DNA from: Lytechinus pictus
Taxonomy: Eukaryota
Reading direction: 5' to 3'
Assembly (NCBI RefSeq): GCF_037042905.1
Contig: NC_087250.1
Location: 6,450,001 to 6,514,000 of the forward strand
DNA: 64,000 nt
Of the stretch, positions 15,788 to 54,772 are shown one piece after another (position 1 is the stretch's first letter; each line of letters opens with the position of its first letter). The notes beneath the pieces are model-generated. The model was not told the DNA's origin, did no database searches, and was given only the letters and a program-made list of their open reading frames with translations. The position numbers and the translations under genes are program-made.

Positions 15788-16290
15788 ATTAGTCAATATA
15801 ATCTTGGTAATGACATGAATGATGAAATGACTACCAGGTTATGGAACTGTCTGAGATCCTTCAACTTATTGACCCATCTAATCATCTCAGACTCATCTCT
15901 CAGTTTCCCTCCATCACCCCCTCAACTGCTATCCGTCACAGCGCTATCGGCTAAGAGAGTGACGTCACAATGCTATGAAGGACTGATCTCATCGCTCCCT
16001 AGGTTGGTAAAGATCCATATCACCACTAATAATGCAGAGGGAGACATACATCAGATTACGGCCGGTCTCCGTCGGACAGGAGGGCAGAGACTCGATCGGA
16101 TCATTCTTCGCGGCATTCCGCTATCATTCCCGCCACGGCATGTGGTAAGACCAGGTCTGCTGTTCGGAAGACATACCGATGACACGACAATTCTTAAATT
16201 GGACGGATCTGGAGAAATGAATGAAGAAGGATGTGTTGAGCTCCTCGAGTCGTTGGCATATTTGGCATCATTCACTGATCTACAACTAAA
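15788..16290 (+). CDS. LRR gene (NLR-like), large exon A1 (503 nt, phase 0 to 2)
   Basis: Acceptor ttcctcttcag, donor gtgagt; LxxLxLxx repeats LTHLIIS, VTALSAK, LVKIHIT, LDRIILR. Confidence 0.88.
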
Positions 16291-16800
16291 GTGAGTTGTT
16301 ATTTTCTAGACGATAAATGCAAACAAATTTGATTTTGTACATTCCAAGCATCTAATTTTCAAGTGGTAGGAAAACGAATAGTTGGTTTCTTAGGTGAAGT
16401 GGAGATTAAATTAAAATTTAGTCAGCTATCAAGAATAAGCAAATTATAAAATCGTTATGTCAAATTCCAATAGTACTAGCTTACATATCGATTGCAGAAT
16501 AAAACCGTGGACTTATAAAAGTAGAGTGTATGTGCACATTACGTGTCATCATGACGATTGAAACGTTTGACCACAAGGTTTTAATGAGGTTTGCATTCGA
16601 GGGCCATCGGGTCATCTTTTCCCTTGATATAAACATGTTTTGGGATCTATTAAAATGGTAATTTTTTGACATGAGGGATTTCTATTGGACATTTTTTGAT
16701 AGTACACTTAAACAGTTCTAAAGTTTTATCGTTAAGTTTCCGACGGCAGGTATGTTTATCATAATGTTGTCATCAATCGCCATTCCTCTTTAATTTATAG

Positions 16801-16849
16801 ATTTCTCGATGGCTGGTCTTTCAACTTTAAAACAACTTTTGGTATTGAG
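16801..16849 (+). CDS. 49-nt micro-exon a1 (FLDGWSFNFKTTFGIE)
   Basis: atttatag / gtgagc; phase 2 to 0; homologous to five other micro-exons. Confidence 0.85.
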
Positions 16850-19800
16850 GTGAGCATGGGTTGTGTCGAAGTATCCAAAAAATATGGTTTCACTCACAAA
16901 TATTTGACAAGAAAAAAAAAGGTCACTAATAAATAAAGATAATTGGGGGTCGGCTCCAAAATGTAGATCATCATTTTTATTTTTTTTGGCTTGGCAGTCC
17001 AAGAAGAGAAAAAGGTGTTTAAAAAGTTCTGAATACATTTTATTTTTCATCATGAAAATCAATAATGCAAGCGCAGAGCGCGAATTGAAAATAATATTTG
17101 AAATTCCGATATGAAATGAGTCAATTTAAGCACTATTTACAGCACTGTGTATAATAGGGAAATTGTGACGTCGATGTGGATAGCACTAAATAAATGATGC
17201 AAGCGCGAAGCGTGAGCTGATATTTTATTATTATTTTAACCTAGGATCGCGACATTTTAGGCCTAAGGATATTTTGTCATCATATAAAAATAATGATTAT
17301 CTTCTATTTCTTTTCCTAAAACGTGTCGTTATTTATTTAAAAAAAAGGGACAATTTAGTTATTATGAATTCATAAAAAAATTATTTCATATTTTTAAATC
17401 TAATAAGCCTAATGAGTGTGCGAAATTTGTTGACAGTGTATGGGGCCTGAAAACTGGAAATTTTAAGTATTTTAGTAATCATAAATAGGATTCATTGGTT
17501 GATATATTTTTAGCAAATAGCGCGAGCGCAAATCGCGATCCAAAATTTTTAAATGGGAGGAATTTAAGTAGTTTGTTATAGAATTAATATGTAGGTGAAC
17601 ATAACTCACCAAAATGCGAGAGCACAGCGTAAGCATAGGCCTTCATTATTTTTAGAATCGTGACACCTGAAAAAGAATATTTAGATAATCTTATATGAAA
17701 TACCCCAAAAAAAAAAAATAGGTGGGCCTACTTAGCAAATAATGCAAGCGCACAAAATGTTGCAAATGTTGATTCACACCATAAAACGTACATTTTCCAG
17801 AGCACTTAAAAAAAAAATTGGAAAAAAAAATGAAAGATCGATGTCCGAGCTGAATTATGTTTTGTATATTGACTTCAAAACTTCATATTTTGAACTATAT
17901 ATCAGGCTATATTGACCAAGATATGCATCTCATCGAACAGGCAATGCAAGTGTGATGCGCGAGCAAAATTTTAGTATAGTGACATTAAATATTTTCAAAA
18001 ATCATTTTCCAAGTCTTCTCATGACCTTACTTTATTCACTCGTCTTCCTTCTTTTTTTTCTCGTATATTTCCCCTTCTTTTTTTTTCTTTTTTCCCTGTT
18101 TTTCCCAATTTATTTGCACCGTCAATAGGGGGAGGAGCCCTCGGGCCCCCTGGATCCGCCTATGTTAGTAGTTGTTATGATGAACACGATGCATATCTAT
18201 TAAGAAATGAATGCGAGCGCTAGCTGAAAACTTTTATAATGACGAAATGAAAAATACATTTTTAGTTGTCAGGTTAGAATATCAAATATTTTCCGCTTGT
18301 GCTTCTCATTTGAATAAAAAAGAAACTATGAGGTCGGGATACGTATATAACTAAACAATTTATTGATGCCAGCGCGAAGCGCGAGCTCATTTTTTTATAT
18401 ACTGACTTAATAAAGGACTAAGGTATAATTCCTATTCTAATTGCTTGTTCTTTTTCTCTCCTTTTTCTCTGTTTCTTAACCCTTTTTTGCGCCACCATGG
18501 GGGGGGGGGCAAATATTTGCCCCTTGGATCGGCCTATGTAGGTTGACTTGAAAAACACTAACACTTACATGTGGGATTAATGAGAGGATGCATACCTCAT
18601 TGATGAAATATTGCGAGCGCGTAGCGTGAGCTGAATTTGATAAAAACCCTTTTTTGTGACCCTGAACAGGATATTTATCTCGCTAAACAGACTTAAAACT
18701 CGAAAACATAGTTTTTGTCTATTATCGTAAAAAGGGGATATTTTAATTCAGCCGCATTAATAATAGCTTTTTGGGTAGGACATATATTTCAATATAAACA
18801 GGCAATACGAGCAATGTTGCGCCCCCGGTCGAAAATGAATTTGCATGAAGCCCCCTAAGTTCAAGGTCAATTTGGCACCCTGGGTTGAACATAAACTTGG
18901 CGCCCCCATGTGAAATATAACTTTGCCCCCCCCCTCCCCCCACCCCCTCTGAAACATGTATTTGTCGCATTATGGTCAAAATTCAAATTAGCGCTCCCCT
19001 AGTTCGAACGTCAATTTGGTGCCCGCTAGATCGAACATTAATTCGGCGGTCCCATAGTTCGAACATCAATTTGGCGCCCCCCTCCCAGTTCAAACATCAG
19101 TTCGGCGCCCTATAGTTCGAAAAGGCATTTTGGCGCCGCCTAGTTCGAACATCAAATCGACGTCCGGGTCAACATCTCCCTCTTTCGTTTCCCATATCCT
19201 TTTCTTTCTTTCTTTTTCTTTCTCTTATCCTCATTCCCCTTCCTTTCTCTTTTTTCTCTCTTTCTTTCCCCCTCTTCCTCTCCCCTATTCTTCTTCTCTT
19301 TTTTTCCTTCCACCCCTCTCTCTCTTTTTCTTCTCTTTATTTTCCCCTTTTCTTCTCTTTTTCCCCATCTTTTCTTTCCCCCTTTTCTTCTCTTTTTTCC
19401 CCGTCTTTTCTTTCTCTGTTTTCCTGTCTCTTTTCTCTTTTTCTTCTCTTCCTTCCCCCTTACCCTCTCTCTTTTCTTCTCTTTCTTCCCATCTTCCTCT
19501 CTTTTTAAATATTATTCTCTTCCTTCCTCTTTTTTCTTCTTCTCCCCCCCCCCCTTTCTTTTCCCTCTTCCTCTTTTTTTCTCTTTCCCCCTTTTTCTTT
19601 TTCTTTCCTTTCCCCCTTTTTCTATTTAATTTTTTTTTCTTCTCTCCCTCTCCTTCCCCCTCTCTTTTTCTTCTCTTCTTTTCCCCTTTTCCTCTCTCTC
19701 TATTTTTGTTATGTTTCTTCCCATCTTTCTCTCTATTTAAATATTCTTATCTTCCTTCGTCTTTTTTTTTCTTCTTCTTTTTCCTCCTTTTCCTTTCTCC

Positions 19801-21322
19801 TTTTTATTCTCTTCCTTTTCCCTCCTCTTTTTTTCTCTTCTTTCCCCCTTTTCTTCTACCTTTTTCTTTGTCTTTCCTTTCCCCCTTTTTTATCCATTCC
19901 TTTTTCCTTCTTACTCTTTTTTCTATTCTCTTATTTTCCATCTTCCTCTCTCTCTCTCTTTTTATTTTCTCCCTTTTCCCCTCCCCCTCCCCCTTTTTTT
20001 TTGGAGCTGGGGGTGGGAGGGGGGGGTGAGGCAGTTCCCCCTCGGCCCCCATGGATCCGCACCTGTTAGAACCCCATGGTCTCGTATCATTTGACCTTTG
20101 GACCTCTCGATGACATTTGATGTATCTGATCATAATTTTACACACACTGCGGACTCGCGGACTATCGGACCCGCGGTCTATCGGGATGTCCCCTCATCGA
20201 CATATCTCGTTTTTCTTTTCTGGGACGCACTGTAAATACCTTTATTCATTTATTTATTTATTTATACATTTATTTATATAGTTATTTCATTATATTCTTA
20301 AATTACTGATTTTCCCGAAACATTCATCAATATTTTGTATTATTTTGGGAGCTATTTTACAACAAACCTTTCTTCAGGGTGAACTTTCCTTCTAAGAGCT
20401 GTTAGAATAACAGAACAGACACAGACCATCAGTATAACAAACGAAATGGCAAATTCGCAAATCACAAAAAGTAGGAATCTGAAACTAATAAGTATAAATG
20501 CAAACATGATCGTGTTGTTTTATTCTGACAGTTACAGCAAGAAGCACTATACTTTACGAAAACAGTAGTACAACGTAGACTATAAATACCAACCGTATAC
20601 AGTCTGCCAGCCAAAATTCGATTGCTTTCGCTAATAATGAATTGTCAAATTGTTATCAATAGTGAAAAGGTATATTTTATAAGCTTTTAATTGATAAATA
20701 TTTCGTCAATTTGGTTTTCAATATCCCACACAAGGATATGTGAATTGAACTATAAAAAAAATTAAATTAATAATTCATTTGTATAAAATGTATTATACTT
20801 TATTTCATATGAATAATTTATGCCAGTATATTCATAAAAAGGCATACTTTTGCTCTGATTCTTTAGATAAAAAGCCTAGAGGGCAATCTATTGTGAAAGT
20901 GTTCTGTATCTTATAGCATTCGAAACATATGTAAACTAAAAACAAATCTGATACCAAATTCAATTTCATATGTATTTTTTTTGTTATTGATATGATATGT
21001 AGCACTGTTTTTTTTTTCTTATCGTATTAATTGTTGTCCAACAATTATCGACTGTTTCATTATTTTGGCCATAATTCAATAGCATCGAATTTTAAGACTG
21101 CTCTCAATAATTAGTTTTTACAGTTATGCCTAGAGATTCAATATTAGATATGATTGTTGTTATTTACTTTAGCTATATGTACCACTAAATTCGTTAATAC
21201 ATTTAGGATTTTCTCCTTTACGATTTGAATAATAGTTCCGTTTGAAAATCATTTCGTTTTTAATTTGATTTAATATAGCTTTATTATCATACACCCATTT
21301 TTTTTTTCATTTTCCTCTTCAG

Positions 21323-21825
21323 ATTAGTCAATATAATCTTGGTAATGACATGAATGATGAAATGACTACCAGGTTATGGAACTGTCTGAGATCCTTCAAC
21401 TTATTGACCCATCTAATCATCTCAGACTCATCTCTCAGTTTCCCTCCATCACCCCCTCAACTGCTATCCGTCACAGCGCTATCGGCTAAGAGAGTGACGT
21501 CACAATGCTATGAAGGACTGATCTCATCGCTCCCTGGGTTGGTAAAGATCGATATCACCACTAATAATGCAGAGGGAGACATACATCAGATTACGGCCGG
21601 TCTCCGTCGGACAGGAGGGCAGAGACTCGATCGGATCATTCTTCGCGGCATTCCGCTATCATTCCCGCCACGGCATGTGGTAAGACCAGGTCTGCTGTTC
21701 GGAAGACATACCGATGACACGACAATTCTTAAATTGGACGGATCTGGAGAAATGAATGAAGAAGGATGTGTTGAGCTCCTCGAGTCGTTGGCATATTTGG
21801 CATCATTCACTGATCTACAACTAAA
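21323..21825 (+). CDS. Large LRR exon A2 (503 nt)
   Basis: Duplicate of A1 with R>G and H>D changes; AG/GT intact. Confidence 0.88.
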
Positions 21826-22336
21826 GTGAGTTGTTATTTTCTAGACGATAAATGCAAACAAATTTGATTTTGTACATTCCAAGCATCTAATTTTCAAGTG
21901 GTAGGAAAACAAATAGTTGGTTTTTTTAGGTGAAGTGGAGATTAAATTAAAATTTAGTCAGCTATAAAGAATAAGCAAATTATAAAATCGTTATGTCAAA
22001 TTTCAATAGTACTAGCTTACATATCGATTGCAGAATAAAACCGTGGACTTATAAAAGTAGAGTGTATGTGCACATTACGTGTCATCATGACGATTGAAAC
22101 GTTTGACCACAAGGTTTTAATGAGGTTTGCATTCGAGGGCCATCGGGTCATCTTTTCCCTTGATATAAACATGTTTTTGGATCTATTAAAATGGTAATTT
22201 TTTGACATGAGGGATTTCTATTGGACATTTTTTGATAGTACACTTAAACAGTTCTAAAGTTTTATCGTTAAGTTTCCGACGGCAGGTATGTTTATCATAA
22301 TGTTGTCATCAATCGCCATTCCTCTTTAATTTATAG

Positions 22337-22385
22337 ATTTCTCGATGGCTGGTCTTTCAACTTCAAAACAACTTTTGGTATTGAG
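22337..22385 (+). CDS. 49-nt micro-exon a2
   Basis: Duplicate of a1 with one synonymous change; AG/GT intact. Confidence 0.85.
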
Positions 22386-22539
22386 GTGAGCATGGGTTGT
22401 GTCAAAGTATCCAAAAAATATGGTTTCACTCACAAATATTTGACAAGAAAAAAAAAGGTCACTAATAAATAAAGATAATTGGGGGTCGGCTCCAAAATGT
22501 AGATCATCATTTTTATTTTTTTTGGCTTGGCAGTCCAAG

Positions 22540-23117
22540 AAGAGAAAAAGGTGTTAAAAAAGTTCAATATCTGCTCTTTCATTTGATACCTTAATAAAAA
22601 AAAAAATGGTCAAGAACTAAAACAGTTCTGTTCCCCCAAAACAATGATTCTATTTCAATAATTTCATTAAATTTCACCGGTTTCCCAAAGAAGCTATCAC
22701 ACGGTAAAAAAAAAAGACTTAATGAATGGCTGATCGTCAACAACAGAGCGGAGTGTTGAGTTAGCCTGAACGCTAGCCTGTTAAACCTGACATTCAAGCC
22801 TTAATTTAAACAACCAGAACTTTTCTTTTTTCTAGCCCATTTTCTGTAATTGAGGTATCAAATTAAAGAGCAGATGTTCAACTTTTTAAACATATGGTTT
22901 TCTTTTTGAAACCCAGATACAGCCCGCCAAGTGACTTTTTGGTATCCCTTCTTCAAACCTTTTTGCTCACTCATGCTTAAATGAGGACTAATGTAAATAT
23001 TTTTAGATGAAAGAGGAGATTTTAAGCTTCACAGTGGTAGGTCATTTGTCTATTACATTTGTGATTAAGTTATGATAAATTATCGATAAATCTCGGTTCC
23101 TTTTTTTGGAAGCACTG
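22540..23117. mobile_element. Partial Tc1/mariner-like MITE, same family as 45180-45965 with the internal part in opposite orientation
   Basis: Ends ...GCACTG followed by TA; shares blocks such as AAGTTCAATATCTGCTCTT and GGTCATTTGTCTAT with the 45-kb copy. Confidence 0.7.
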
Positions 23118-26445: not shown

Positions 26446-28840
26446 CATAAGAGCTGTTAGAATAACAAAACCGACACAGACCATCTGTAACTACCGAAAT
26501 GGCAAAATCACTAATCATAAAAAGTAGGAATCTGAAATTAATAAGAATAAATGCAAACAACATCGTGTGGTTGTTTTTTTCAGACAGTTAAAGCAAGAAG
26601 TAATATACTTTACGAAAAGAGTAGTACAACGTACTCTATAATTACATATGCAAAAATATTAAATCAATTAAAGGAAATCTCTAGAGTATGATTGAATTGA
26701 CAGAATATTCTGGTAAAAATATGTTTTCATTTTCTTCTCAATTTCTAGAAAAAAACTATAAAACATATCTATCATGAAGTTCTTTGTTGTAAATGTTATA
26801 CAACCAAATGTATAGAACCTGCCAGCCAAAATTTGATTGTTTTTTTGCCAATAATGAGTTGTCCAATTTGTATCAATAGTGAAAGAGTATATTTTATACG
26901 TTTTAAATTGATAAAAGAACTCGTCAATTTGGTTGCCAATATCCCACACAAGGATAGGTGAATTTATCTATTGAAAAAATAGAATTAAATAATTCATTTG
27001 TATAAAAATGTATTGCACGTTAGTTCATATGAATAGATTATGCTAATATATTCATTAAAATACATTTTTTGGCTCTGATTCATTAGATAACGAGCCTAGA
27101 AGGCAATCTATTGTGAAAGTGGTCTGTATCTTATTGCATTCGTAACATAAGTAAACTATAAACAAATCCGTTACCAAATTCAATTTCATATGTATTTCTT
27201 TTGTTATTAATATGTTATGTAGTTTTTTTTTTTTTGGCTCTTTTTATATTAATTGCTGTCCAACAAATATCGTCTGTTATATTATTTTGGCCAAAATTTA
27301 ATAGCATTGAATCTTAAAGACTGCTCTAAATAATAAGGTTTTACAGTTATGTCTAGGGATTCAATCTTAGATATAAGATTTGTTTATTTATCTCAGCTAT
27401 ATGAAAAGCTCACTTGCAAAAGGGGTTAGGTGCATTTTTATCAAATTTGATTTTTATGTCTTAATGTATAGATTTTTAGTAGCTCTATTAACTCTTACTG
27501 TGCCAGTACGAATACCCTTTGACTGCCAAGGGTATTCGAGGGAATCCTAAATTGACCGAAACGTAAGCAGAGACTGATTTTAAAACGGTCATAACTCTTT
27601 ACCCGTACATTGTTTAATAAAACCTTCTACACACGAAATCATGCATGGTACATGAACTTTATGATCGTGTTATTATCTTTCTTATTCGCAGTTTTAAAAA
27701 AATGAGAAAAAATTAATATTTTACGTTTTTTTTTTTTCAATAAGTAAAACCTAGAAATTATAATTTCATGAATATTTCAACGAGCAAATAACCTGATGAA
27801 TTGTAGAGATACCAGGAAATTAAGATGATAGAATAAAAGTTCAATGTTTACCCTTTTAAATGACGTAGATATTGATGAAATTAAACGAACAGAAATAACA
27901 AAAAATAATGCTCTTTTGAATGAAATACTATTTTGGCTATTTAAGTTGCTTCCTCTGAAGAATACACACACAATTGAAAGCGTTCTTTTTCAAAAATGGG
28001 CATCGTCTTCGATCAAGTGACCAATCGTAGAACAGCTCTGATCCCCACGCGAACACACACAATAATATATCAGAACCCTGTATCTTCAAAGTGTGGCCAA
28101 CCGTATACTTTTATTCGTGTAGTCTTCAAAATAAGACCCTGTGTATTTTTATTCGTAGTGTAACAAACAAAGTTATTGCCAGTCAGGAGACAAAATATAA
28201 ATTTAAAGATGATATATCAAAATATAGATAAAGAGGGAACGGACAGATTCACTACTAACAAATTTGGGGTATAAAATCCCACAAAATGATAAGCGTTCTT
28301 GGCAAAGTACAAAAAAGCAAGAAAAAAAAACCGTTTATTTTTCGTGAATCAAAGAAGAGGAAATGCAGATCAGTTACAAACAAAAATTCAATACAAATTT
28401 TCAAAAAAGAAAATAGGCCTATTTGTTCTGTATTACTGGTCTGACCAATGTAGCCACCTGTTAACATTCTCTGCGACTACATTCTTTTGTTCATGCCACC
28501 AAGTCATGAACAATAGATGCCCAGACTCTCTTTCATGAGGAATCTCTAATCCGCGCTCCCTCCTGACCTATTATCTAGGATAGCAATTTAGCACAGGATG
28601 TTCTTAGAAATCGGGGCTCACGCACGTCTTTTGATTTGACTATTCAATACTTTCAAAGGTTCCGATATTTATTTCTTTTTACATTTTACTTTTTTGTGGG
28701 TGACCCAGGTAAAAAGAAAACAATTAGCCCCCCCCCCCTACATACAAATCCGGCATCCACCCAGGGTCTCCCCAGCTCGTAGCACTATCCGTAGTAAAAA
28801 AAGAATAATTTGTTCAGATAACATGATGTACAATATATAA

Positions 28841-29033
28841 AGGCCTGGTCACACCGCCCGAGCGTTGTTGGAGCGGAGAGAAAAAATCATCACCGCTCGT
28901 TACTGTTCACCATTTTCGATATCGATTTTTTTTTTTTTTTTTTCGATTCCCCAATTTTGTGAGCGAAATTCGACCCTCTCTCCCTACCGCTCCACGACCA
29001 CTCCAGCAACGCTCGGGGGGTGTGACCAAGCCT
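28841..29033. mobile_element. PIF/Harbinger-like MITE (193 bp, TAA TSD)
   Basis: TAA|AGGCCTGGTCACACCGCCCGAGCGTTGTTGGAG ... CTCCAGCAACGCTCGGGGGGTGTGACCAAGCCT|TAA. Confidence 0.85.
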
Positions 29034-29598
29034 TAAGAAATTCAATATTCAACCCGTTATCGTCATCATTTTCATTTCTACTCTCTAAAGTCGTTTTAAA
29101 ATCTCCTTGATAGTGAAGTCAATGCAGCAACTAACAGGTCGGTCTGATCGGTTTTGTTAATGTAACTGGCAGCTGTCCCGCCTTATCCCTTTCTTTATTT
29201 TCCTCAAAACATCTGATATTGCTGTACATACTCCGTTTACATTTTCTATTACCAATGGTTGGATTTAGTAAAGAAAAAAACATCCACTTTGAAAAAAGAG
29301 ATAAATCTTTAGAGGAATAAAGCGTTATTATCACATTTTTTGCTTCTTCCTATTTTATTCGAGGAGAATATTGAACGATTCACATCTTTGTAAGAAGTTT
29401 AATATGATACTGATAAGCATAACAATGTCAATCATTTCTTTAAAAATGGTTTGGGTTATAAAAAGACAAACGAATATGGCCCGTTATTTACCAGATCTTA
29501 ACTTTATGAAGAGAGAGTTTGGCTGCAGAAGAAATGCAATTGGTATGATCACAACAATTATTTTTGAATGATGATGACTCTGATCGCAATAACATTAA

Positions 29599-30159
29599 AG
29601 TGATTAAAGGAAAATATTCATATCTTTATACATATAATAGAATTCACTGAGCAAAATGCCGAAAATTTCATCAAAATCGGATAACAAATTGTAAAGTTAT
29701 TAAATTTAGTAATATTTTGTGAAAAAGAGTCGTCATGAATATTCATTAGATGGGCTGGTGATGTCACATCCCCACTTTCCGTTTTCTTATGTTATTACAT
29801 AAAATCATAATTATTTCATTATTTCATACTTGTGTGAATAATATGTCTCCCTTATAATGAAATAAATATCTAATGCATTAAATCAGTTGTCAATTCAATT
29901 TTTCTAGTGCTTGGAGGAAAAAAAGATTGAATAAACCTAATTTCATATAATAAAATACAAAAGATCAAGTGGAGATATGACATCATCAGCCCACCTAATG
30001 AATATTCATGACGACTGTTTTCACAAAATATTGCTAAACTTTAAAATTCAATAACTTTATTATTTTATTATCCGATTTTGATGAAAATTTTCAGTATTTT
30101 GCTTAGTGAATTATGCTCTATTTATAAAAATATAAATACTTTCAGCCCAGACAATCCCT
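29599..30159. mobile_element. Palindromic Kolobok-like MITE; second copy at about 36855-37415
   Basis: Long inverted arms (TTTCATCAAAATCGGATAA / TTATCCGATTTTGATGAAA; GTCGTCATGAATATTCATTAG); right end ...CAATCCCT|TTAA. Confidence 0.75.
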
Positions 30160-33013: not shown

Positions 33014-33048
<35 letters not shown>

Positions 33049-34311: not shown

Positions 34312-34360
34312 ATGTCTTCATAGTTGGTGTTTCAACTTTGATGAACTGTCAGGCGTTCAG
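34312..34360 (+). CDS. 49-nt micro-exon b1 (CLHSWCFNFDELSGVQ)
   Basis: tatacag / gtaggt; phase 2 to 0. Confidence 0.87.
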
Positions 34361-39671: not shown

Positions 39672-40462
39672 GTGAGTCATTTTTTTTAATTTTAATCAAC
39701 CATACAGCTTTATCTCTTGCCGATATCAACAGTTACTGTCACTGTACGGAATGTCAGAAAACAAGGTACATTGTATTTGTTTTTTTATTTCAGGTTTAAT
39801 TTCCGCAGGGTATTCCTTTCAGTTATAGAACTGATTTACAAAGAGGCCCTTCAACGATGAAAAGAACATACATATTTTACAATGGACATATAAACAGGAT
39901 AAAATCATACTATGAAAACAATATTAGGAAACATATACATGCAAAAACAAAAACAAATATATAAGAAAACAAGGTACATGTATAGATAGATATTTGCTTC
40001 CATAACAGCATGTTAGATATAGTCTGCTATGCAGACTCTGAATGGCTCGTAAAGTGGGATCTGCAGCTGGTTTGCGAAGCAAACCAGCCTGAAAGGGCGA
40101 GCGAAGCGAGCCACTTCCACATCTGTAGCTCCAGTAGACCTAGTCTGCTATGCAGACTCCTTGAATCAGCTCAGCTGCTGTGATACACACACTGCAGATG
40201 TGGGTTTACATTTGTAGACTTTGTTAGATCCATGTTAACAGGAAGGCGACTCTGACTTGTAAATTGTAACTTAGATCGGCTACAAAGATTTGGCACATAA
40301 TTTAGTCCGTCTTTTTTTAATATTACTAAATTGACTTTGCAGCAGCCATTCGGATGTCCTCAGAATAGCTCGAAACCATAACCTACATCCCTCTGACCCT
40401 ATCTATATCGGGAGTGACAAAAGCAATTTGAAGTAAAACAATAGTAGTAGTACTACTACTAC

Positions 40463-40502
<40 letters not shown>

Positions 40503-41761
40503 CGCAGTAGTAGTAGAATAATGATATTAGCAATAACAATACTTAATTGCCCAGGTGCTCTCTGCGTTATTACGACATTAATTTCACGATGATTTATGTG
40601 GTTGGCAAAATAAATATATGCCCCCATATTTGTGGCTTATCTGTATTATGTCTTCCCACTTGAAGAGGTCCGTAAATAATAATAATAATAATAATAATAA
40701 ATGTGATTTGTAATGTGTAAAATCCATTCTGCAGAGTGCTCAAGGCGCAGTAAAAGAAAAAGAGATAGAGAACAATACAAATAAAAAATATAAATTAAGG
40801 AACAATCAAGAACAGGAAGCATTAGACAGACGAAGTGCAATCACGGATAAGCAGGGGAAGGCCATTCCAGTGAACAGGGCCAGCGTGAGCAAAAGCCCGT
40901 GCCCCCATGTCTTAGCAGATTAGGGAACAGCTAAGAAACCAGAGTTGGATGAACGAAGGGACCTGACAGGAGTGTATTTGTTAATCAAATTAGTATCGTG
41001 GAGCAGAATCATTAATTGCAAAGAATACTAGAAGATCAATTGAGGGCCTACGAGACCGCTGTTATGTAATTGCTTTGTGTTACTATTATCGAAGGGTAAT
41101 CAATTACATAAGAAGATTTTACCACATTACCCATATAAATGAAAAAAAAATTAAAGTCTACAATCATTATTACCTTTTGATACCGGCACAGAGTAAAAAA
41201 ACCTCATAGCACTCGTTGAAGTTTTATTAACAACCCAAAAAGAACATCCACGATTAGCTACTAAAAGAATGTTTATCCAAAAAAAATACCTCAGCGGAAT
41301 AATCTCCGGGATGTAATAAAAAGTTTATTTTTTTCCTTGGGGGGGGGGGCAGACATGACGAATGGAACCAAAACAAATATTTTCAAACAATCTGGGAGTT
41401 ATCAAAACTATTTTTGATACAAAAATATAATTTGGTCATATGGATTTCGGCATATTATTCAGAAAATGATATAATTTTCACGTTGTTCCTTTCCATTTTT
41501 CTCAAAGTTCCGGGGGCCATAACCCGCATGCCCTTCCTATCTGTACTTTAGTGGCGAAAGCGATTTAAGTAATTGATGAAAAGTTCAACGTTATATGAGC
41601 TTACGCTTTCGACGGCATAAACACATCAATCCTTTGTGCATCAGTGGTATCAGGATCAACATCGACATCAAGATTCCGATGACACAGGTTCTCACCTGAA
41701 TAATGTGCCACTATTTTCCCTCTAACCAATTTCGATTTTCTATATTATTACCATTATACAG

Positions 41762-41810
41762 ATGTCTTCATAGTTGGTGTTTCAACTTTGATGAACTGTC
41801 AGGCGTTCAG
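41762..41810 (+). CDS. 49-nt micro-exon b2
   Basis: Identical to b1; AG/GT intact. Confidence 0.87.
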
Positions 41811-42949
41811 GTAGGTATATTGTCATGATTGTGTCGGTCCTGTACTTACCGAATATCGCCTTGAATTCCAAAGATGTTTTAACCAACTTATATCAGGCTA
41901 AGTAATTATGGGTATAAAAATATAGGAATGTATTCCTATATCAACAATTGATTTTAAAAAATCGTCATTAAAAAGATTTTTAAAAATATATATGTTTGGT
42001 GGGGACACATTATTGCCAAAGTCCAATTGAAATTTTATATTTTCAGATTTGCGAAACAAAATACTTTTAAACATAATCTTCATTGATTGGTTTTATTTTT
42101 CACAGTTTTTTTGTTTGTTTATATTTCTGTTATTTCAAAATATCTGATTAATTTCAAACAGATGTAAAGCTTTGTTGATTGGTCAGTAATGTAAACCTTA
42201 TTCGAATATTTCATTAGCTATTCAATGCTTTTTTCCCCAGTAGAATATAAATTTGGCATTTTTTCGCCCCATATGAAGAAATTTAGATCTGGTGTCCTGT
42301 TTTTGATGCTTTCATGTTTATTTGAAATAGCAGTTAGAATACCTCTCTTACATATGTATTGATTGGATATTAGAAAGCGACTTAAGAAGATTGGCTTAGA
42401 TTTTCAACCCATCCCATGATCGAGATTTTTACTTAGTCAAGTCAAGAATACGCAAGGGGGTAGGTTGCATCGTTTTGAATTAAGGCTTTTACTTAAATCG
42501 TTTAATTCACTTAATCATTGACCCTAATATATTTTTATCTAAAAAAATCACACCACAACCATTTTGGGAGCACATGCATTAAGAAGGTATGGTAAACACA
42601 TTGTATAATGACACACGGTTTGGGGGATTTAGCTAAACTAAAGATTCGCTTCTATTTTTTTTTGTGAAAAAAAAGTTATCCATATATCACTTTCAAAAGG
42701 ATTTGCTCCAGAATGTCTCCCTTTAATTGATTTTTTTAAGTGTATAGATATTGATTCGAAAAACTCTCTCTGATTTCGGCGGTATCCCCCATTTTCATTA
42801 CTATTATTTTTTCTTTCTTTTTTTGCTGAAATACCTGCAATTCTCTTCATGAAATGCATAAAACTGTGGAGAATAAACATTATCGTAAACTTATCGGTTT
42901 AACACAACATAATTGTTATTCATCTTTTCTATATTATATTTTCCATCAG

Positions 42950-43251
42950 ATTACCAAATGTTGTCTATCTTCTGATATGACTACTAGAATATGGTCCTGT
43001 CTCAGATCCTTCACCTCACTTAACCATCTCAGAATCTCAGATTCATTGCTCAGTTTCTCTTTATCACCTCCTGAGCTACCGTCCGTCACAAAGCTATCAG
43101 CTAATAAACTGACGTTACAATGCTATAAAGGGTTAATCTCATCACTACCTGGGCTGCAAGATATTGATGTCCAAGATGCAGCTAGAGATGACTTTGTTGA
43201 ATTTGTCGAGTCTTCAACACGTTTCTCATCACTGCTTCGACTTGAGATAAA
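42950..43251 (+). CDS. Shortened LRR exon C1 (302 nt, phase 0 to 2)
   Basis: ttccatcag / gtgagt; ITKCCLSSDMTTRIWSCLRSFTSLNHLRIS...LLRLEI. Confidence 0.88.
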
Positions 43252-45072
43252 GTGAGTTTTCATATTCTCATTATTTGCCAAGGATGTTCATTGTTACAAT
43301 AGCCGTATACAATGTTCTGGTTATGTGTTCAAGGCGCTCTTATATTAAACCGATAGAGTCAAGCGCCCCGCCCTTTTCTTAAAACGGTCATTTATAATCG
43401 GACATCACGCTGAATGTAATATGTTGGCCTATTGTAATATCCTAAACTGATTAAACAAATCGTTTTAGGTAAACTTTAATGATATCACAATACGTAGTAG
43501 GTTACACGTAGTTTAAAGTAGTTCCAATTAAACTGAATTCCGTTTTCATCGCTCTCATTTATACCGATACAGGATGTGCAGGCAGGAGGCAACATTATTC
43601 GGAAAATATGTTAAGAAAAATGGTCGAGGTACCCTTAAGGATTTTCCTCGCTCGTAGTCAAAATTCACCTTTACAGCTGGTTGGTTGGAAATTATTAATT
43701 AAAATAGGAGCCATAAGGTATATCTTACAAAGTTATACGTCTATTACATCACGCACAGCCCTTTCTCGCATATCAAGATGCGGAATTATAGTTCAAAGTG
43801 TAATTAGAGTTTTACAAAATAGCCCAGATTTAGAGGGCTATTTATTCCATCATTCTAGTTAACGAGATGGTCGAATGTATAAATTTCATTTGTACCAACG
43901 TAAGCTTCATCTGATGACAGTAGATAGGTATCTCAGGGAAGTGAAAATCTGAGACTATGTTGTTTGTTCGGAGAGTTACAAAGTCAAGTGCCAAAAGAGT
44001 CATATTCCGTTTTTGCCGGTAGCCTGAAAATTTATGATCGTTTGTCATATTGATCTTTCTTAAAGTATAGTTATCTCCTAATGTGGATACTCTTTTGCCT
44101 TTTCGCTTTAATCGGTTGTAACATAAAATAACATAGTTCATAATAGCAAGTTGGATAAACTAGGCAATAAAGTAATAACGATCCTTTAATAATATCCTGA
44201 AAAATAGCGGAGATTCTCTTATCTCCATACACTAACCTGAATACAAAACACACTTCATGGGCTAAATAAGCGACTCGCATGCCTTCCGTTATTTATAAGT
44301 TCATTGGTAGCTAGTTGGGCACTGCTTTCCGAATGGTTTTCTATCATCATAGCTCCTAGAGATGACTTTTGTATCTTCTCTATAAATCGATTTTCCTAAA
44401 TTCATCTCACTACGATGTGTTGACGCTTGAAGTGATTATTGCACATTACCTTCATAACAATATCTAACATGTCTAACTATTGAAAATTCAACCATATCTT
44501 TCGTGTTTTGTCTATTCGATTGAATTCTGAAGTCGCTTGTCTAATTTCCTCCATCACAATGGCGATTTCTTTTTCCTCCATGAATTATATGTTCTGTTAT
44601 GTTTTATCGACTACGCTTATGAAAATAATGATACGAGGTAAAAAAAATTGTAATGTGATGAAGTCTCATTCTGATCAATATGATCACGATGATCACCATG
44701 ATCAGTAATGAATCTCGAAATACCTCTTTTATCAAGCATCAGTTTTGTATATACCGAGATAGTGACTTGTTTACTGCGCTTGATATGAAAATAATCATCG
44801 GAGAATCGACAACAGACATTTTGTTTTTGGTCCTCTCTCACTTTATCTCTCTCTTACCGGTCACAATTCCAATGTTAGAACATCCAAAGAGCAACCCATT
44901 ACAGTGTTTGTCACAATATTATTGTCGTTATACCTATAATTATGAAAATATCATTATGATTATCAAAATAACTTTAAAGCTTGTAACAATTTTCGAGGCA
45001 CTTAGTACACATCTGAATAATGTTTTATGGTTTATTATCATTCAGAGGAATTTCATTTTTTCTACAATTTAG

Positions 45073-45121
45073 AACTCTTGATGAATGGCATTTCGACTTT
45101 GATATCGCAGAAGGTGTTCAG
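45073..45121 (+). CDS. 49-nt micro-exon c1 (TLDEWHFDFDIAEGVQ)
   Basis: caatttag / gtgagc; phase 2 to 0. Confidence 0.87.
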
Positions 45122-45179
45122 GTGAGCATAGGTGTATTAAGTGGATGTATATCATTTGTGTAACTTGGTGGTTACTATA

Positions 45180-45965
45180 CAGTGCGTCCTTTATCACAAA
45201 TACAATAGACAAATGACCTACCATTTTAAAGCTTAGAATCTCTTCTTTCATCTGAAACTACTTAGATTATTTCTCATTCACGCATGAGTGAGCAAAAACA
45301 ATTTGAAAATGGGATATCAAAAAAGTGACTTGGCCTGCCGTATTTGGGTTTTAAAAAGAAAACCACATTCTTAACAAGTTCAATATCTGCTCTTTAATTT
45401 GATACCTCAATTACAGAAAATGGTCAAGAAATAAGAAAGTTTTGGTTATTTGAAAAAAGGCTTGAATTTCAATAATTTCATAAACTGAGGAAGTTTTACA
45501 GGCTATAGCGTTCAAATTCACTCGACACTCCGTTTTGTTGACGATCAGCCATGCATTAAGTCTTTTGTTACCGTGCGATAGCATCTGTGGGAGAACGGTG
45601 AAAAAAACCCCGTTTATTTAATGAAGTTATGGAAATACAAGCGTTGTTTCGAGGGATCATAACTTTTTTACTTCATGGCCATTTTCTGTGATTAAGGTAT
45701 CAAAGAAAAGAGCAGATATTTAACTTTTTATTCATACGATTTTCTTTTTGAAATTGAGATACGCCCCGTCAAAATGAGTTTTTGTCATCCTTTATTAGAA
45801 TTGTTTTTGCTCACTCATGCATGAATGAAGAATGATCTAGGTAATACCAGATGAAAGAAGAGATTCTAAGTTTTACATTGGAAGGTCATTTGTCTATGTT
45901 ATTTATGATTAAGTTATGATAAATCATCGCTAAATCTCGGTTTCGTTTTTTTCTGGGACGCACTG
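45180..45965. mobile_element. Tc1/mariner-like MITE (TA TSD)
   Basis: TA|CAGTGCGTCC ... GGACGCACTG|TA with long imperfect inverted arms. Confidence 0.88.
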
Positions 45966-46759
45966 TATAACTGTAATGATATCATGGGCAGATCCAGCTT
46001 TCATCAATTGAAAGGGGGATATTTTCCACATGTCCCCCACCCCCGGCCGCTAAAAGCTGATATTTGCTTCTTTTAGAGGGTAGGCAAAAGAAAGACTTAT
46101 TTATAAAGAATATCTCAACTTTATTAATGCGAGCGCAGAGCGCCTGTTCTTTTTTTTTCATGTTTCCATACCTTGAAATGGAATATTCTAAACAATTTTG
46201 TAATGTTAAACTTGTGTATATGAGTGCGCAAAGCTCTAGTAGAAAATGTTCATGCAGTGACTTTGAAATGAATCTGTTTGGAACTGTTTGCAGGGAAACA
46301 TTTTGAAGGAGAATCAGACATATTACGTGAAAGTTTGAATTATATCAGACAACAAAGATTAATTTTCAAAAGCTTTAACAATTTCAATTACAATAGATAT
46401 GGAAACTTTAGATTGGTCCCATTGGGTATTTAATAGTGGTGTAAGACGAGGAATACTCCTCACTAAAACATTTAATATGACTAAAATGCCATTGTTTTTA
46501 AAGTTCAATTCGAATTCTTTTTTTTTTCATGAAGTCATTTACTAAGATAAGCTACTTTGTTGATATTTTTACTACCCCAGGGGAATAGTTACATCAAAAA
46601 ACCGTGATATTAATTTAAATGGCATAATATGATGCGGTTTTCTTACTACTAGTCATAATTTTTTCACCAAGTTCACAATTCGACATTTGAATTGTCTTAC
46701 CGTTCTTGATTTTAAAGCATCCAAAACTTTCACCTGTGTATTTCTTTTTTTTAATCACA

Positions 46760-46925
46760 TACTGTAAAAAATTAAGTGCTAATTTAGAACTGAAAGTGCT
46801 TGTAGAGTGAGTGCACTACGAGTGCTGATTTTCTTCTTCAAATTTAAACTAAAAAATCGGCACTCGTCGTGCAGTCACTATACAAGCAGTGTAAGTGCTT
46901 AATTAGCACTTCATTTTTAAATTGT
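46760..46925. mobile_element. About 165-bp palindromic MITE with CACTA/EnSpm-like ends
   Basis: About 75-bp imperfect inverted arms (AAGTGCTAATT...GCACTACGAGTGCTGATTTT / AAAATCGGCACTCGTCGTGC...AATTAGCACTT). Confidence 0.65.
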
Positions 46926-48301
46926 AAGGTCCTTACCGTTTGTGGTTATAAAAAGGCATAGAGTGTTTTGCTTTCAGGCTGGAATATCTTTTTAGCTCGC
47001 GCTTCGCACTCGCATTATTCGATGTATTCTATTTATTCATGAGTCACTTTTCTGGTCAGTATATTTCAGCTTCGCGCTCGTGTTAATCATTTAGTTAGAT
47101 GCACATTTTTTTAATTATTGTAAAAAGAACTCAACATGTTTTATTTTCATTTCTTATTGAAATTTTCCAAGAGTTTGAGCTTGCGATTCACGCTCGCAAT
47201 ACCTCCCACGGATGCCCTTTTAGCAGTAATTGACCCACCCCCCCCCAAAAAAAAAAAAAATTAATAATAAAAAAATACGAGTTTTACAACATCAGCTTTT
47301 AATTTCTTTCCAAACCTCTCGCTCGTTACACTCCCTCGCGAAAAATAAAGTCTAAATATATATCTTACCGTAATCAGAAATCACTTCAAAAAGGCTTTGC
47401 TCTACTTTACTTTTCTTCTCTTTTTTGCCTTCTTTTGCCGCTTTTTTGCCTTAACCACAAACGGTGAGGACCTATAGCTGACTTGAAAAAAAAAGATATT
47501 CTAAGCACAGACTGAAATCACGAAAAGGATGAAGATCTCACTAAACAAATAATTCGAGCGTAAAGCGCAAGTATTCAAGAAAAACAATGTCATGAATATT
47601 GAATGTCTAAACATAACTTGTAAGAGTAAACAGGATATCATGTTTATTCATTAGTAATACAAAAAAGGTATATGAAATTAATTTGAATACTCATTGTATT
47701 GATCTAGTTTCGTAACAATATGCTGACGAAACATAATAGTTATTCAAGCAATTTGCGCCGTGATTTTTTTTTCATTTTGGGGCACTAAGGATTCAAATTT
47801 AGATCTGGCCCCCAGATTCGGTATTTTTCTAATGTTTATTAAAAAAAAACCCGCTAAAGTACTTACTTGACGTATTAAGAAATTTTATATTAGAAGACAA
47901 CTTATAGGCCTATAGATCAAATACTGAGATTTTAAGTTAATCCAATGATTGAGAAACCCTTTTTAAAAGACAAGACAAGATTACGCAGGGATTTTATGCA
48001 TCCTTTTTTTTTTTGTATTAAAGTTTGATGTAAAATGGGTAAATTTGACGATCAAACAATTTTTTTATCTTTGAAACTTCACACCACAGCCGTTTTGGTG
48101 CATATGCATTAAAAAGATATGACAATGGAATAGTGACATGTCATATGGGGATGGGAAGTTTACCCAAACTAAACGCTTCCATTTTTTTATCTATTTTATA
48201 AAACAAATATGTATATACACTGTATTTCTTGGTTTTTCTTTCAGATTTTTTTCAAATAAGTGTATATTTTCAAGCGTCTAAATAATTAATATTTCCTTCA
48301 G

Positions 48302-48603
48302 ATAACCAAATGCCATCTGTCTTCTGAGATGACTGCTAGAATGTGGTCTTGTCTGAGACCCTTCACCTCACTGAACCATCTCACCATTTCAGACTCATCG
48401 CTCAGTTTCTCTCTATCACCTCCTGAACTACCGTCCGTCACAAAGCTATTAGCTAATAAACTGACGTCACAATGCTACCAAGGGTTGATCCCATCACTAC
48501 CTGGGTTGCGAGATATTGAGGTCCAAGATGCAGCTAGAGATGACTTTGTTGATTTTGTAGAGTCTTCAATACGTTTGACATCACTGCAACGACTCAAGAT
48601 AAA
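48302..48603 (+). CDS. Shortened LRR exon C2 (302 nt)
   Basis: tttccttcag / gtgagt; older duplicate of C1 whose downstream intron is still alignable. Confidence 0.88.
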
Positions 48604-50494
48604 GTGAGTGTTCATATTCTGAGCTCATTATTTGCCAAGGATGTTCATTGTTACCATAGCCGTATACAATGTTCTGGTTATGTGTTCAAGGCGCTCTTAC
48701 AGGGTGTATATTAAACCGATAGAGTCGATAGAGTCCCTTAAAACGGTCGTTTATAATCGGACATCACGCTGAAAATAATATGTCGACCTATTATAATATC
48801 CCAAACTGAAAAAAAACCCGTTTAAGTCAACTGTAATGAGATCCCAATACGTACTAGGTTACACGTAGTATTATATGTATAAAGCATTTCAAATTAAACT
48901 TTATTCCGTTTTTCATCGCTCGCATTTATAACGATACAGGATGTGCAGGCTGGAGGCAAAATTATTCGGCAAACATGTTGAGCAAAGTGGTTGAGGTACT
49001 TTTAAGAATTTTCCTCGCTCATAGTTAAAATTCACCTGGACAGCTAGTTATTTGAAAATTATTAATTAAAATAGGAGCCATAAGGTATATTAATGCAAAG
49101 TTATACGTCTATTACATCACAAAGTCCTTCTCACCCGCTCAGCCCTTTGTCTTATATCAAGATACGGAATTATAGTTCAAAATATAATTTGATTTTTTCA
49201 ATATAGCCCAGATTTGGAGAGGTATTTATTCCATCATTGTAATGAACGAGATGGTCGAATGTATAAATTTCATTTGTACCAGCGTAAGCTGTATCCGATG
49301 ACAACACATACGTATATGTGGAAAGTAAGAACCTGAGACTATGTTGGTTGTTCGGAGAGTTACAAAGTCAAGTGCCAAAAAGAGTCATATTCCGTTTTTG
49401 CCGGTAGCCTGACAAATTCATGATCGTTTGTTATAATGATCTCTCTTAAGGTAAAGTTACCTCATAATGTGGATTTTTTTTTTTGCCTTCTCGCTTTACT
49501 CGGTTGTAACATAAAATACCCTTGTTCATAATAACAAGTTGGATGAAATAAGCAATAAAGTAATAACGATCCGTTGAGAATTTTAATGGAGAAAATCGGG
49601 GGATATTCCCTTATCTCCTTACAACAAACTGAATACCGCACTCCACGGGCTCAATAAGTGTCTAGCCTGTTTTACGTTATCTTAAGTTCAGCAGTAGTTA
49701 ATTGGATAATGCTTTCGAATGGTTTTCTATCATCATTAGACCCAGGTATGTACATTCTCTTTAAATCGCTTATTCTAAATTCATGTCGCAATGACGTGAT
49801 GACACTTGAAGTGATTATTGCAGATGACCATTCACAACACTATTTAATGATGGTACTTGATATTAAACTAAAACGAACCATATTTTTCCGGATTTTTTAT
49901 CATTATTATTATTTATTTATTATCATAATTATTTATTTATTTTTTTTTTTTTTTTTTTTGGGGGGGGGTCAATTCTAAATGAAGTATAAAGTTGCTTGTT
50001 TTATTACCTCCATGGCCACGGCGATTTCTTTTTTCTCCAAGATATATTTGTTCTCTTATGTTTTATTGTTAATGATTATGATAACACTGATACGAGGTAC
50101 ATATTGTTTATATTGTGATTCGAATTGTATTTCTGAGAATTATGATCACGATGATAACTCTTATTGGTGATGTAATCTATTTTGATCGCCAAATACATCA
50201 CATTGTATGTATCAAAAACTTATATTTTTACTGCGCTGGAGCTAAAAAATGGTCATCAAAGATATGGGGAAAAAACCCGATAGACTCCCGTTCTTGTTCT
50301 TCTTCTTCTTCTTGTTCTTCTTCTTCTTCTTCTTCTTCTTCTTCTTCTTCTTCGTCCTTTACTTAGTCATAATTTTAATGAATAGAACATTACAAAAGCA
50401 ACTGGTTGCAGTGTTTGTCACAATAACATTGTTGTTACATATGATTATTAATTATCATTTATGTTATATATATATCTTTTTCTCTACAACACAG

Positions 50495-50543
50495 ATCTCT
50501 TGATAAATGGCAATTCGACTTTAATACAAGCTCAGGTATTAAG
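50495..50543 (+). CDS. 49-nt micro-exon c2 (SLDKWQFDFNTSSGIK)
   Basis: aacacag / gtaagc; phase 2 to 0. Confidence 0.87.
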
Positions 50544-53076: not shown

Positions 53077-53579
53077 ATAACCAAATGTCGTCTGTCTTCT
53101 GAGATGACTTCTAGAATGTGGCCATGTCTCAGATCATTCACCTCACTGAAGCATCTCACCATCTCAGACTCATCTCTCATTTTCTCTTCATCACCTCCTT
53201 CGCTACCATCGGTCACAAAACTATCAGCCGAGAGAGTGACGTCACAGTGCTATGAAGGTCTGATATCATCGCTCACTGGTTTAGTAGATATTGATATCAC
53301 TGTCGATGTTGCAGAGGAAGACATATCCCATATCACTGCTGGTCTTCATCGGACAGGAGAGCAGAAACTAAAAAGCATCTATCTTCATGGTCCATCTTCA
53401 CTTTCACCAGAGAGGAGCCGTGTATCGAGCAAGACAATGATAGGACTGGGTCTGGTCATCAAAGAACATACACAGAACCTGAACCGCCTCCATCTACGAT
53501 GGGTGAAGTGTACAAACGAGGATGACTTAGTTTACCTAATAGAGTGTTGCAGACGTGTGAAGATGATGCAAAACGTTTT
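53077..53579 (+). CDS. Large LRR exon D (503 nt, phase 0 to 2)
   Basis: ttcattcag / gtaagt; LKHLTIS, LVDIDIT, LKSIYLH, LNRLHLR. Confidence 0.9.
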
Positions 53580-54510
53580 GTAAGTTCTTGCTTATGAAAA
53601 AAAATATTTTGTTGATATAATTTAATTATTAATCCAATGCGATGGTTCAATTCCTACAGGGTTCATATTACATCCAAAATATTTCCTGTAAATATTCGGA
53701 TACATCCAGAGAAGAAACGGTTCCATTCTTTTTTTAGCCATTAATAGTGTCAGGTACTCTTAGAATTGCCATGAATATGTCAGGTCCTCAAATACACTTT
53801 TTTACTAAAAAATTGGAGTTTGATAGCATTACCTTGTCATTAAATGTTACTCTTAGATAATAGCACAAGCATGCACATTTTAATTTTACTGCTAGTTCGA
53901 TCGTAACTCTTGTATAAGCTCCAGTAGCCTACTATCAATAGTATTTCATACCTGACTCGTACTCAATGTGAAATAATCGATTTGTTTATTGTATTAAAAA
54001 TGTCCTTTTAAATATTTATCAATATTTCGTATGTACTAATTTTCTTTTATTACTTTAATAGATGTTACTTCAGTCATAATATTTTGTTATAAAGATTACG
54101 TTCCCGATCATCATAAATCCCAAATGTACCCTGCATTTCAATTTGATTCAAATTTTAAATCATCCCCACCGCAATATATATCACAGGTACATTATTGTAA
54201 TAATAAATTGCAAAAATTTCTGACATTTTGGGGAAGATAAGCCAAACTTATTTGATACTCTCACCTAATATCCTGCATTTTTCATACGTCAAAGTCAAAG
54301 TAAAGATATTCAAAAAACTCTTATATCATGATATATGAATTTTCATTTCGGGAGAAAAAACAAAAAAGTATTCAATCAAACGAAAGTGTTACATACTACT
54401 AGCGTTTTAACCTGAAACATACAATACACACAGACACGCAAACACTTCTTATACACATTCCCCATCTTCTTATAATTTATTACACCCATCAGTTTGTTTC
54501 ATGATTGCAG

Positions 54511-54772
54511 GTTCTTTTACTGTGGGACGACGAGGAATGGCAGGCTGCAGTCTCACCTCGAGCAACTTCACCGTGGATCTTCCCACGGTCTCAATGTGCA
54601 TGTTTATTATGTAAGATATACTGCTATGCTTCTACACTGTGTAATTTCAATGTCACAATATTATGCATACCAGCAATATAATTTATGGTTAAAAAGACGT
54701 ATAACGTGTGAGTCTATTAGAATATTATTGTTTATCATTCACATTGAAAGCAAGCACAAGGATGCAATATAA
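54511..54772 (+). CDS. Probable terminal exon (FFYCGTTRNGRLQSHLEQLH...)
   Basis: gattgcag acceptor in phase 2, matching exon D; TAA at 54770-54772; AATAAA at 54823-54828; an alternative donor gtaaga at 54611 is possible. Confidence 0.7.

Follow-up and report, generated by a model that had tools for sequence, protein, structure and literature searches.

Can a sea urchin locus that repeats one two-exon unit seven times be a single gene, and does such a design serve to diversify a receptor or does it record ordinary duplication? The question is raised by positions 15788 to 54772 of a window of 64,000 nucleotides (nt) of Lytechinus pictus DNA (RefSeq assembly GCF_037042905.1, contig NC_087250.1, 6,450,001 to 6,514,000), a stretch that corresponds to the NCBI-annotated, uncharacterised gene LOC129263472 on the plus strand. 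We consider it probable that the locus is a single gene on the plus strand, with 15 coding exons, whose product consists of about 1,200 residues of irregular leucine-rich repeats (LRRs), and that it has grown by tandem duplication of genomic blocks.

Open frames on the plus strand between 15.7 and 53.6 kb hold one repeated peptide, which occurs seven times. In a protein search, the third large exon, E3, matched P0001 at 100% identity, which NCBI lists as 'uncharacterized protein LOC129263472 isoform X2 [Lytechinus pictus]'. Isoform X1 (P0077) belongs to the cluster of this protein, and so does P0078, an older NCBI model. The coding exons are as follows, a large exon and the small exon after it making one cassette (c1 to c7).

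15788..16290, plus strand: E1, large exon of cassette 1, 503 nt, phase 0 to 2; its tenth codon is the annotated start Met
16801..16849, plus strand: m1, 49-nt exon, phase 2 to 0, peptide KFLDGWSFNFKTTFGIE
21323..21825, plus strand: E2, 503 nt, recently copied from E1; 2 of 503 nt differ, both nonsynonymous
22337..22385, plus strand: m2, 49-nt exon
31699..32219, plus strand: E3, large exon, 521 nt
34312..34360, plus strand: m3, 49-nt exon
39151..39671, plus strand: E4, 521 nt, recently copied from E3; 5 of 521 nt differ, 4 of them nonsynonymous
41762..41810, plus strand: m4, 49-nt exon
42950..43251, plus strand: E5, 302 nt, short cassette; an RNA contig lies over 42946-43199
45073..45121, plus strand: m5, 49-nt exon; spliced joint to E6 in sequencing runs X1 and X2
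48302..48603, plus strand: E6, 302 nt, copy of E5 from an older duplication, 12.3% nt divergence
50495..50543, plus strand: m6, 49-nt exon
53077..53579, plus strand: E7, 503 nt, terminal-type cassette, a type positionally conserved in three urchin species
54511..54610, plus strand: T1, 100 nt, phase 2 to 0, which stands in the terminal cassette where the others have a 49-nt exon; in isoform X1 the frame continues past its donor as far as the stop at 54772
57196..57249, plus strand: T2, last coding exon of isoform X2, stop included

The exon sizes and phases given in an earlier note on this DNA were reproduced by a script, exact to the base. The seven large exons (503, 503, 521, 521, 302, 302 and 503 nt) all run from phase 0 to phase 2, and the six 49-nt exons all run from phase 2 to phase 0. 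Each of these 13 cassette exons has an AG acceptor with a preceding pyrimidine tract and a GT donor, the donors being mostly GTGAGT or GTAAGT. The cassettes are frame-neutral, as the note had held, when taken as pairs, since a large exon and a 49-nt exon together amount to 552, 570 or 351 nt, each a multiple of 3. Single exons do not preserve the frame; 503, 521 and 302 nt leave a remainder of 2 and 49 nt leaves a remainder of 1. Chance yields 2-10 open 49-nt AG..GT candidates per intron, and the true 49-nt exons are distinguished from these by a common peptide, xLDxWxFxF...G[VI]x, together with tblastn matches from relatives. A peptide matching the 49-nt exon is present in P0003, P0005 and P0013, reading SLDGGCFEYDRQSGVQ in S. 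purpuratus and FLDGWSFNFxTxFGV in L. variegatus. The equal phases do not count as seven separate coincidences, since the cassettes are paralogues that arose by copying.

Joining the 13 exons to 54511-54610 and reading through to the stop at 54772 gives 3711 nt, or 1236 codons plus stop, which is the stop-free frame of about 1236 residues that the earlier note had anticipated. From the first Met (codon 10 of E1) this path is identical, letter for letter, to isoform X1 (P0077, 1227 residues). The path that ends in 57196-57249 is identical, again letter for letter, to isoform X2 (P0001, 1191 residues). The 3' end is the sole difference between the two isoforms, and all 13 cassette exons are in both. 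The alternative last exon of P0078 has no letter-for-letter match in the window. Reading through the donors of E1 to E6 leads to an immediate in-frame TGA (donor GTGAGT, giving AAG TGA or GAG TGA, for example at 16289-16294) and reading through that of E7 leads to TAA (TTG TAA), so that intron retention behind a large exon would end the protein at the exon end. The relative P0038 terminates just like such a read-through, with '...RLEIK'.

To what fold does this array correspond? A 498-residue part of the protein (the end of E4, m4, E5, m5, E6, m6, E7, T1 and T2) was modelled with AlphaFold2, with 35 relatives as the alignment. The model had a predicted local distance difference test score (pLDDT) of 89.1 and a predicted template modelling score (pTM) of 0.78, with strand and helix alternating regularly. 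When this model was compared with the PDB in Foldseek, 245 matches passed E <= 0.001. Ribonuclease inhibitor (RI) 4per_A came first, at E 4.6e-8, and other top rows included NLRP2, NLRP5 complexes, NLRC4, NAIP, internalins, a Roco LRR, SKP2 and COI1. In our own reading, the start of a cassette across the small-to-large border, VQITKCxLSxEMTxRxWSCLxxxxxLxxLxISDSSL, fits the RI-type consensus LxLxxCxLSxxxxxxLxxxLxxxxxLxxLxIS.

Several results weigh against an LRR assignment. The Foldseek TM-scores are low, at 0.17-0.34, as is usual between long solenoids that differ in curvature. No Pfam LRR family reached its threshold in the single exons or in P0001; the sub-threshold matches on single exons were to LRR_4 (14.3 bits, cut-off 27) and LRR_2 (13.6 bits, cut-off 20.9) of clan CL0022. 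A sequence search of the PDB with P0001 returned chance-level HSP90 rows alone, and a profile search matched PDB entries weakly (FBXL17 at E 0.034, ribonuclease inhibitor at 0.64). Alignment to the LRR_6 protein P0127 with hhalign had a probability of 28%, and the LRR-like clusters found in the ESM Atlas at 0.85-0.91 are leads only. Among 1.84 billion representatives the profile of the seven large exons matched only 63 proteins at E <= 0.001, which points to a lineage-restricted repeat; the weak tail of that search includes two canonical LRR proteins, P0127 (LRR_6) and P0129. On the predicted fold and the motif reading, we accept the encoded array as a putative LRR solenoid.

The exon borders follow the modelled rungs. 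Mapped onto the DSSP string, E4/m4, m4/E5, E5/m5, m5/E6, E6/m6 and m6/E7 all fall inside predicted strands, for example HLNL/EC, GVQ/ITK and RLEI/K, where the slash is the border. In the short cassette of 117 residues the strand starts lie 28, 22, 23, 26 and 18 residues apart, which makes five rungs, and the 49-nt exon contributes one short rung that has no helix in the model. Rung lengths are irregular, at 18-37 residues. The cassette is thus predicted to be a whole number of rungs, so that its gain or loss should preserve both frame and fold.

How the array reached seven cassettes is recorded in the DNA around it. Self-BLAST of the window placed neighbouring cassettes in larger repeated blocks, which are listed here with the features found at their junctions.

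11468..22565, plus strand: duplication A (5.56 kb), 11468-17029 repeated as 17027-22565 with 0.89% substitutions; the units join at about 17027 through 3 bp of microhomology, TTC (self-BLAST)
28864..42964, plus strand: duplication B (about 7.3 kb), 28864-36125 repeated as 36121-42964 with 2.12% substitutions; the units join through 5 bp of microhomology, GTTGT (self-BLAST)
42933..49847, plus strand: older duplication of cassettes 5 and 6, 42933-44467 against 48285-49847, 83% identity
36111..36125, plus strand: first 15 nt of E5 with its acceptor, a stub at the duplication B junction that marks the right-hand breakpoint inside exon 5
28832..29042, no strand assigned: small inverted-repeat element with 45-nt arms, 84% complementary, high-copy in read contigs; it holds the left breakpoint of duplication B

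Blocks A and B lie head-to-tail and include introns. Short microhomology is expected of replication or end-joining errors, and the clean junctions are the signature of microhomology-mediated tandem duplication, unlike overlap-based misassembly. The two units of duplication A differ at 3 of 552 exon positions and at 46 of 4970 other positions, and those of duplication B at 5 of 570 and 134 of 5998. Pooled, this gives 8 of 1122 in exons versus 180 of 10968 in non-coding sequence (Fisher p = 0.015), a weak sign that both young copies may be under constraint. The exon changes are 2 nonsynonymous and 1 synonymous between c1 and c2, and 4 nonsynonymous and 1 synonymous between c3 and c4, and the ratio of nonsynonymous to synonymous rates (dN/dS) is 0.34-0.79 in older cassette pairs. 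Cassettes 5 and 6 have diverged by about 20% in their DNA. Between m5 and m6, 13 of 49 nt differ (26.5%) versus 12.3% for the large exon and 21% for the surrounding aligned non-exonic sequence, though the numbers are small.

A tree of 32 cassettes from S. purpuratus, L. variegatus and L. pictus genes gave the same pairs, with c1 and c2 as sisters (100/99) and c3 and c4 as sisters (100/98). The terminal cassettes of all three species form one clade (95/92), and the 117-residue cassettes form a Lytechinus clade (100/98). Neighbouring sister cassettes are found elsewhere too, in Sp311 (c1/c2), Sp913 (c3/c4) and Lv863 (c1-3), so intragenic cassette duplication is recurrent in the family. The paralogue LOC129263010 has a colinear order of five cassettes, A-B-short-short-terminal, without the two young copies.

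These comparisons suggest a course in which an array of cassettes, each a large exon and a 49-nt exon with a 100-nt exon in place of the 49-nt exon in the last, grew to seven through an older event (cassettes 5/6) and then two very recent ones (1/2 at 0.9% and 3/4 at 2.1%). Frame neutrality is inherited from the ancestral cassette, and it is also a survival condition for any internal duplication in an open reading frame. Two propositions of the earlier note agree with these results: that the exons form one multi-exon LRR gene is supported by the predicted fold, including the structure prediction it had called for (LRR solenoid, pLDDT 89.1, on the 498-residue part) and the Foldseek matches, and that the array is still expanding is well supported by tandem duplications at 0.9% and 2.1% divergence.

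We next consider what kind of gene carries the array. Among 76 homologues of E3, 43 contain the NACHT domain (PF05729) and 33 are annotated without it. A Death domain is added in the relatives P0075 and P0109, the latter reading Death, NACHT and cassette, and in P0038, P0103 and P0109 NACHT is followed by a homologous cassette. The repeats encoded here are thus of the type from which echinoid NACHT proteins make their C-terminal arm. In the NACHT-bearing relatives the first cassette comes directly after the NACHT-associated region, in the NACHT exon. Passages in three papers describe the echinoid NLR genes as an expanded multigene family (PMC2858798, PMC4852459, PMC3879445). Other results count against placing LOC129263472 itself among the NLRs. 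P0001 contains no NACHT, and there is no NACHT exon in the window, where tblastn with the 76 family proteins (43 with NACHT) had no match beyond the 15 exons listed above and none on the minus strand. Nor was any N-terminal effector domain of the Death, CARD or PYD type found in P0001. The NLR identity proposed in the earlier note therefore stands for the family and would not yet extend to this gene, for which sequence comparison points to family-level homology only. As annotated, its product would be an LRR-only protein without NACHT, and by analogy with its relatives only it may serve innate immunity as an LRR arm that binds ligands or has a regulatory role.

It is possible, though we doubt it, that the window holds the 3' part of a full Death/NACHT-LRR gene whose NACHT exon lies more than 15.7 kb upstream, past retrotransposons, and that the NCBI model is truncated at its 5' end. 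The prevalence of NACHT in the relatives (43 of 76), and the adjoining of NACHT region and first cassette in one exon, are in keeping with this, but the other 33 are annotated without NACHT just as this gene is. The acceptor of E1 and its pyrimidine tract are intact, and nine open codons precede the first Met; the acceptor, however, is intact by construction, because the whole unit copies that of E2. The first 8 kb of the window consist of opposite-strand retrotransposons, which is typical of a long intron, yet in two annotation rounds Gnomon placed no upstream coding exon. Further, no cassette joined to NACHT in a database protein exceeds 76% identity to E3, and LOC129263468 (P0038, NACHT and two cassettes) and LOC129263469 (P0083, a terminal cassette) look like a separate complete gene, on adjacency of identifiers only. 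The retrotransposons themselves are an LTR (long terminal repeat)-type element at 3-5165 on the minus strand, with gag-like zinc-knuckle, aspartic protease, reverse transcriptase, RNase H and integrase, which runs off the window start, and a LINE (long interspersed nuclear element)-type element at 5758-8031 on the minus strand, with a 757-codon open frame covering an endonuclease and the start of a reverse transcriptase domain.

Growth by tandem duplication also has to be weighed against misassembly. If two haplotypes of a highly heterozygous genome had been placed in tandem, c1/c2 and c3/c4 would be assembly artefacts and the real gene would have five cassettes, which we regard as improbable. 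The copies differ by just 0.9% and 2.1%, within the allelic divergence of sea urchins. Three further observations weigh against the young copies: P0078 has just one c1/c2-type cassette, no displayed read contig bridges either recent duplication junction, and one contig from sequencing run X1 matches copy 2 exactly from 36126 onward, with 40 unmatched letters before that point. The break at exactly 36126 could be a de Bruijn path switch via a 121-nt stretch common to the copies, or a haplotype without the duplication. The later start Met of P0078 may be a gap in that assembly, so that this model says little on duplication A. For duplication B it is more informative. P0078 differs from the window protein at 4 of 921 aligned residues and contains c3 as well as c4, each recognisable by residues diagnostic for it, which at the sequence level supports the presence of duplication B in a second assembly or haplotype. 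The 64-kb window contains no N, the joins are clean with 3-5 bp of microhomology, for which an overlap assembler would need spanning reads, and the 15-nt stub of exon 5 at the duplication B junction is what a real breakpoint predicts. The recurrence of sister neighbouring cassettes in other genes and species also argues for genuine duplication.

Are the cassettes used as alternatives? A contig joint from 45116 to 48297, which equals 45121 to 48302 (m5 to E6, GT..AG) with the equivalent cut 5 places on, was found in one contig each of sequencing runs X1 and X2, from two studies. These runs are not recorded as RNA, and the spliced joint implies that they hold spliced RNA of LOC129263472. It is the one clear splice joint among the 15 of 478 joints listed, and the other junctions rest on Gnomon models and sequence, a point against the exon chain as drawn. 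Cassette skipping was not seen among the same 15 joints. Among the best 120 of 127 shorter proteins at E <= 1e-20, none was more than 84% identical to P0001, as a shorter isoform would be. In P0078 an internal phase-0 donor, GTG/GTAAGA, is joined directly to E3, skipping 65 residues that include m2; this join may stem from a gap in the assembly and not from RNA. The internal donor is present in both E1 and E2 (16130-16150 and 21665-21685).

The earlier note had gone on to read the frame-neutral cassettes as a diversification system, in which haplotype copy-number variation and free joining of large exons to downstream 49-nt exons would draw a repertoire of LRR arms from one locus. We think this very improbable as a working system. 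By arithmetic every join of that kind, like every join of a 49-nt exon to a large exon further downstream, keeps the frame, cassettes of whole rungs should still fold in a shortened array, and one gene has undergone two duplications at less than 2.2% divergence; passages on human NLRP3 show that functional in-frame skipping of LRR exons is possible (PMC6642158). Frame neutrality, however, is not supported as evidence of a dedicated diversification mechanism, because an internal duplication can persist in an open reading frame only if its length is divisible by three and because the phases are inherited from one ancestral cassette; the principle is also in print for vertebrate NLRs, in the same paper (PMC6642158). 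Nor did combinatorial splicing find a counterpart in the data: all 13 cassette exons are retained in both current NCBI isoforms, no shorter isoform appeared among those best 120 of 127 database proteins, the only clear RNA joint among the 15 of 478 listed is canonical, and most simple skips would shift the frame, as single exons of 503 or 49 nt do not preserve it. The internal-donor join of P0078, which could be cited in favour of such a system, may stem from the assembly gap. A narrower proposal, that cassette number is polymorphic among L. pictus haplotypes and that in-frame splicing at the cassette level (including the internal E1/E2 donor) yields variable-length LRR arms from a NACHT-less gene, has in our view a slim chance of being right; if true, NLRP3 LRR exon skipping would have a counterpart in an invertebrate, acting on multi-rung two-exon modules. 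That the exons belong to separate genes is rejected on the single open reading frame, the single gene model and the one spliced joint.

The window holds further repeats. Each unit of duplication A has a C+T-rich low-complexity block of about 2 kb (12500-14600 and 18000-20100), with GC skew down to -0.43, and a 232-bp tandem array lies at 19434-19852 within the second unit. Tandem arrays are also present at 9872-10320 (49-bp unit, 9.2 copies) and 8334-8633 (129-bp unit, 2.3 copies). Each unit of duplication B has an inverted repeat with arms of about 200 bp at 81% identity (29610-30143 and 36866-37399), with very high contig depth in all four runs, which is probably a high-copy transposable element. 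No Rfam family was found in the window.

The closest known system is the echinoid NACHT-LRR family. As in that family, the repeat is shared, at 40-76% identity to E3 in 75 hits outside the gene's own cluster, the cassette periods are 184-192 residues in both genera and 117 residues in Lytechinus, and the terminal cassette type is conserved. Unlike its relatives, the LOC129263472 model lacks NACHT and Death, and its seven cassettes are at the high end of the counts.

Human NLRs offer the clearest parallel in exon design. In the passages concerned, Hoss et al. (2019, PMC6642158) describe LRRs on exons of 84 or 171 bp, with borders at a fixed beta-sheet place and strictly frame-preserving, and such modular exons as permitting isoform diversity in vertebrate NLRs. 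The urchin gene is alike in having repeated exons with borders inside a beta-strand and modules that can be removed with frame and fold kept. The vertebrate module is a single 84- or 171-bp exon with one or two repeats of 28/29 residues, as that source has it, whereas the urchin module consists of two exons (302-521 nt and 49 nt), preserves the frame only as a pair, and spans irregular rungs, about five of them in a short cassette and a larger number in a long one. Alternative splicing of LRR modules is shown there for NLRP3 and not in the urchin gene. The zebrafish NLR-B30.2 genes, as passages of Howe et al. (2016, PMC4852459) present them, likewise underwent a large expansion specific to their lineage, carry LRRs on separate exons and show evidence of exon shuffling and of recent duplication; each of their LRRs is on a single exon and recognised by Pfam, which the urchin cassette is not.

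Among solved solenoids, ribonuclease inhibitor is the best structural match, and the cassette start reads like the RI-type consensus. For the F-box (CC-type) LRRs there is the weak profile match to FBXL17, beside the equally weak one to an LRR_6 protein. Compared with both, the urchin repeat lengths are irregular, some rungs have no helix, and sequence similarity is below the family thresholds. In the lamprey VLRs, too, LRR modules are the unit of variation, and the genes are put together somatically, flanking cassettes being copied in the manner of gene conversion. VLR-like somatic assembly is rejected here on the ordinary introns and canonical splice sites of a germline gene.

A non-exhaustive literature search found no description of how the exons of echinoid NLR LRR arrays are organised. 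As a description, growth of echinoid NLR-type LRR arrays in units of a two-exon, multi-rung cassette, with two events at less than about 2% divergence in one gene, may be new. The gene anatomy itself reveals no new mechanism, growth being ordinary tandem duplication of two-exon blocks. What it offers is a base-level view of the build and growth of the LRR arm in the expanded NLR family of sea urchins, with cassette copy number as a concrete genotyping target in urchin populations. Set beside the vertebrate NLRs, it would extend their exon-equals-structural-module rule to an echinoderm repeat that sequence models miss as an LRR.

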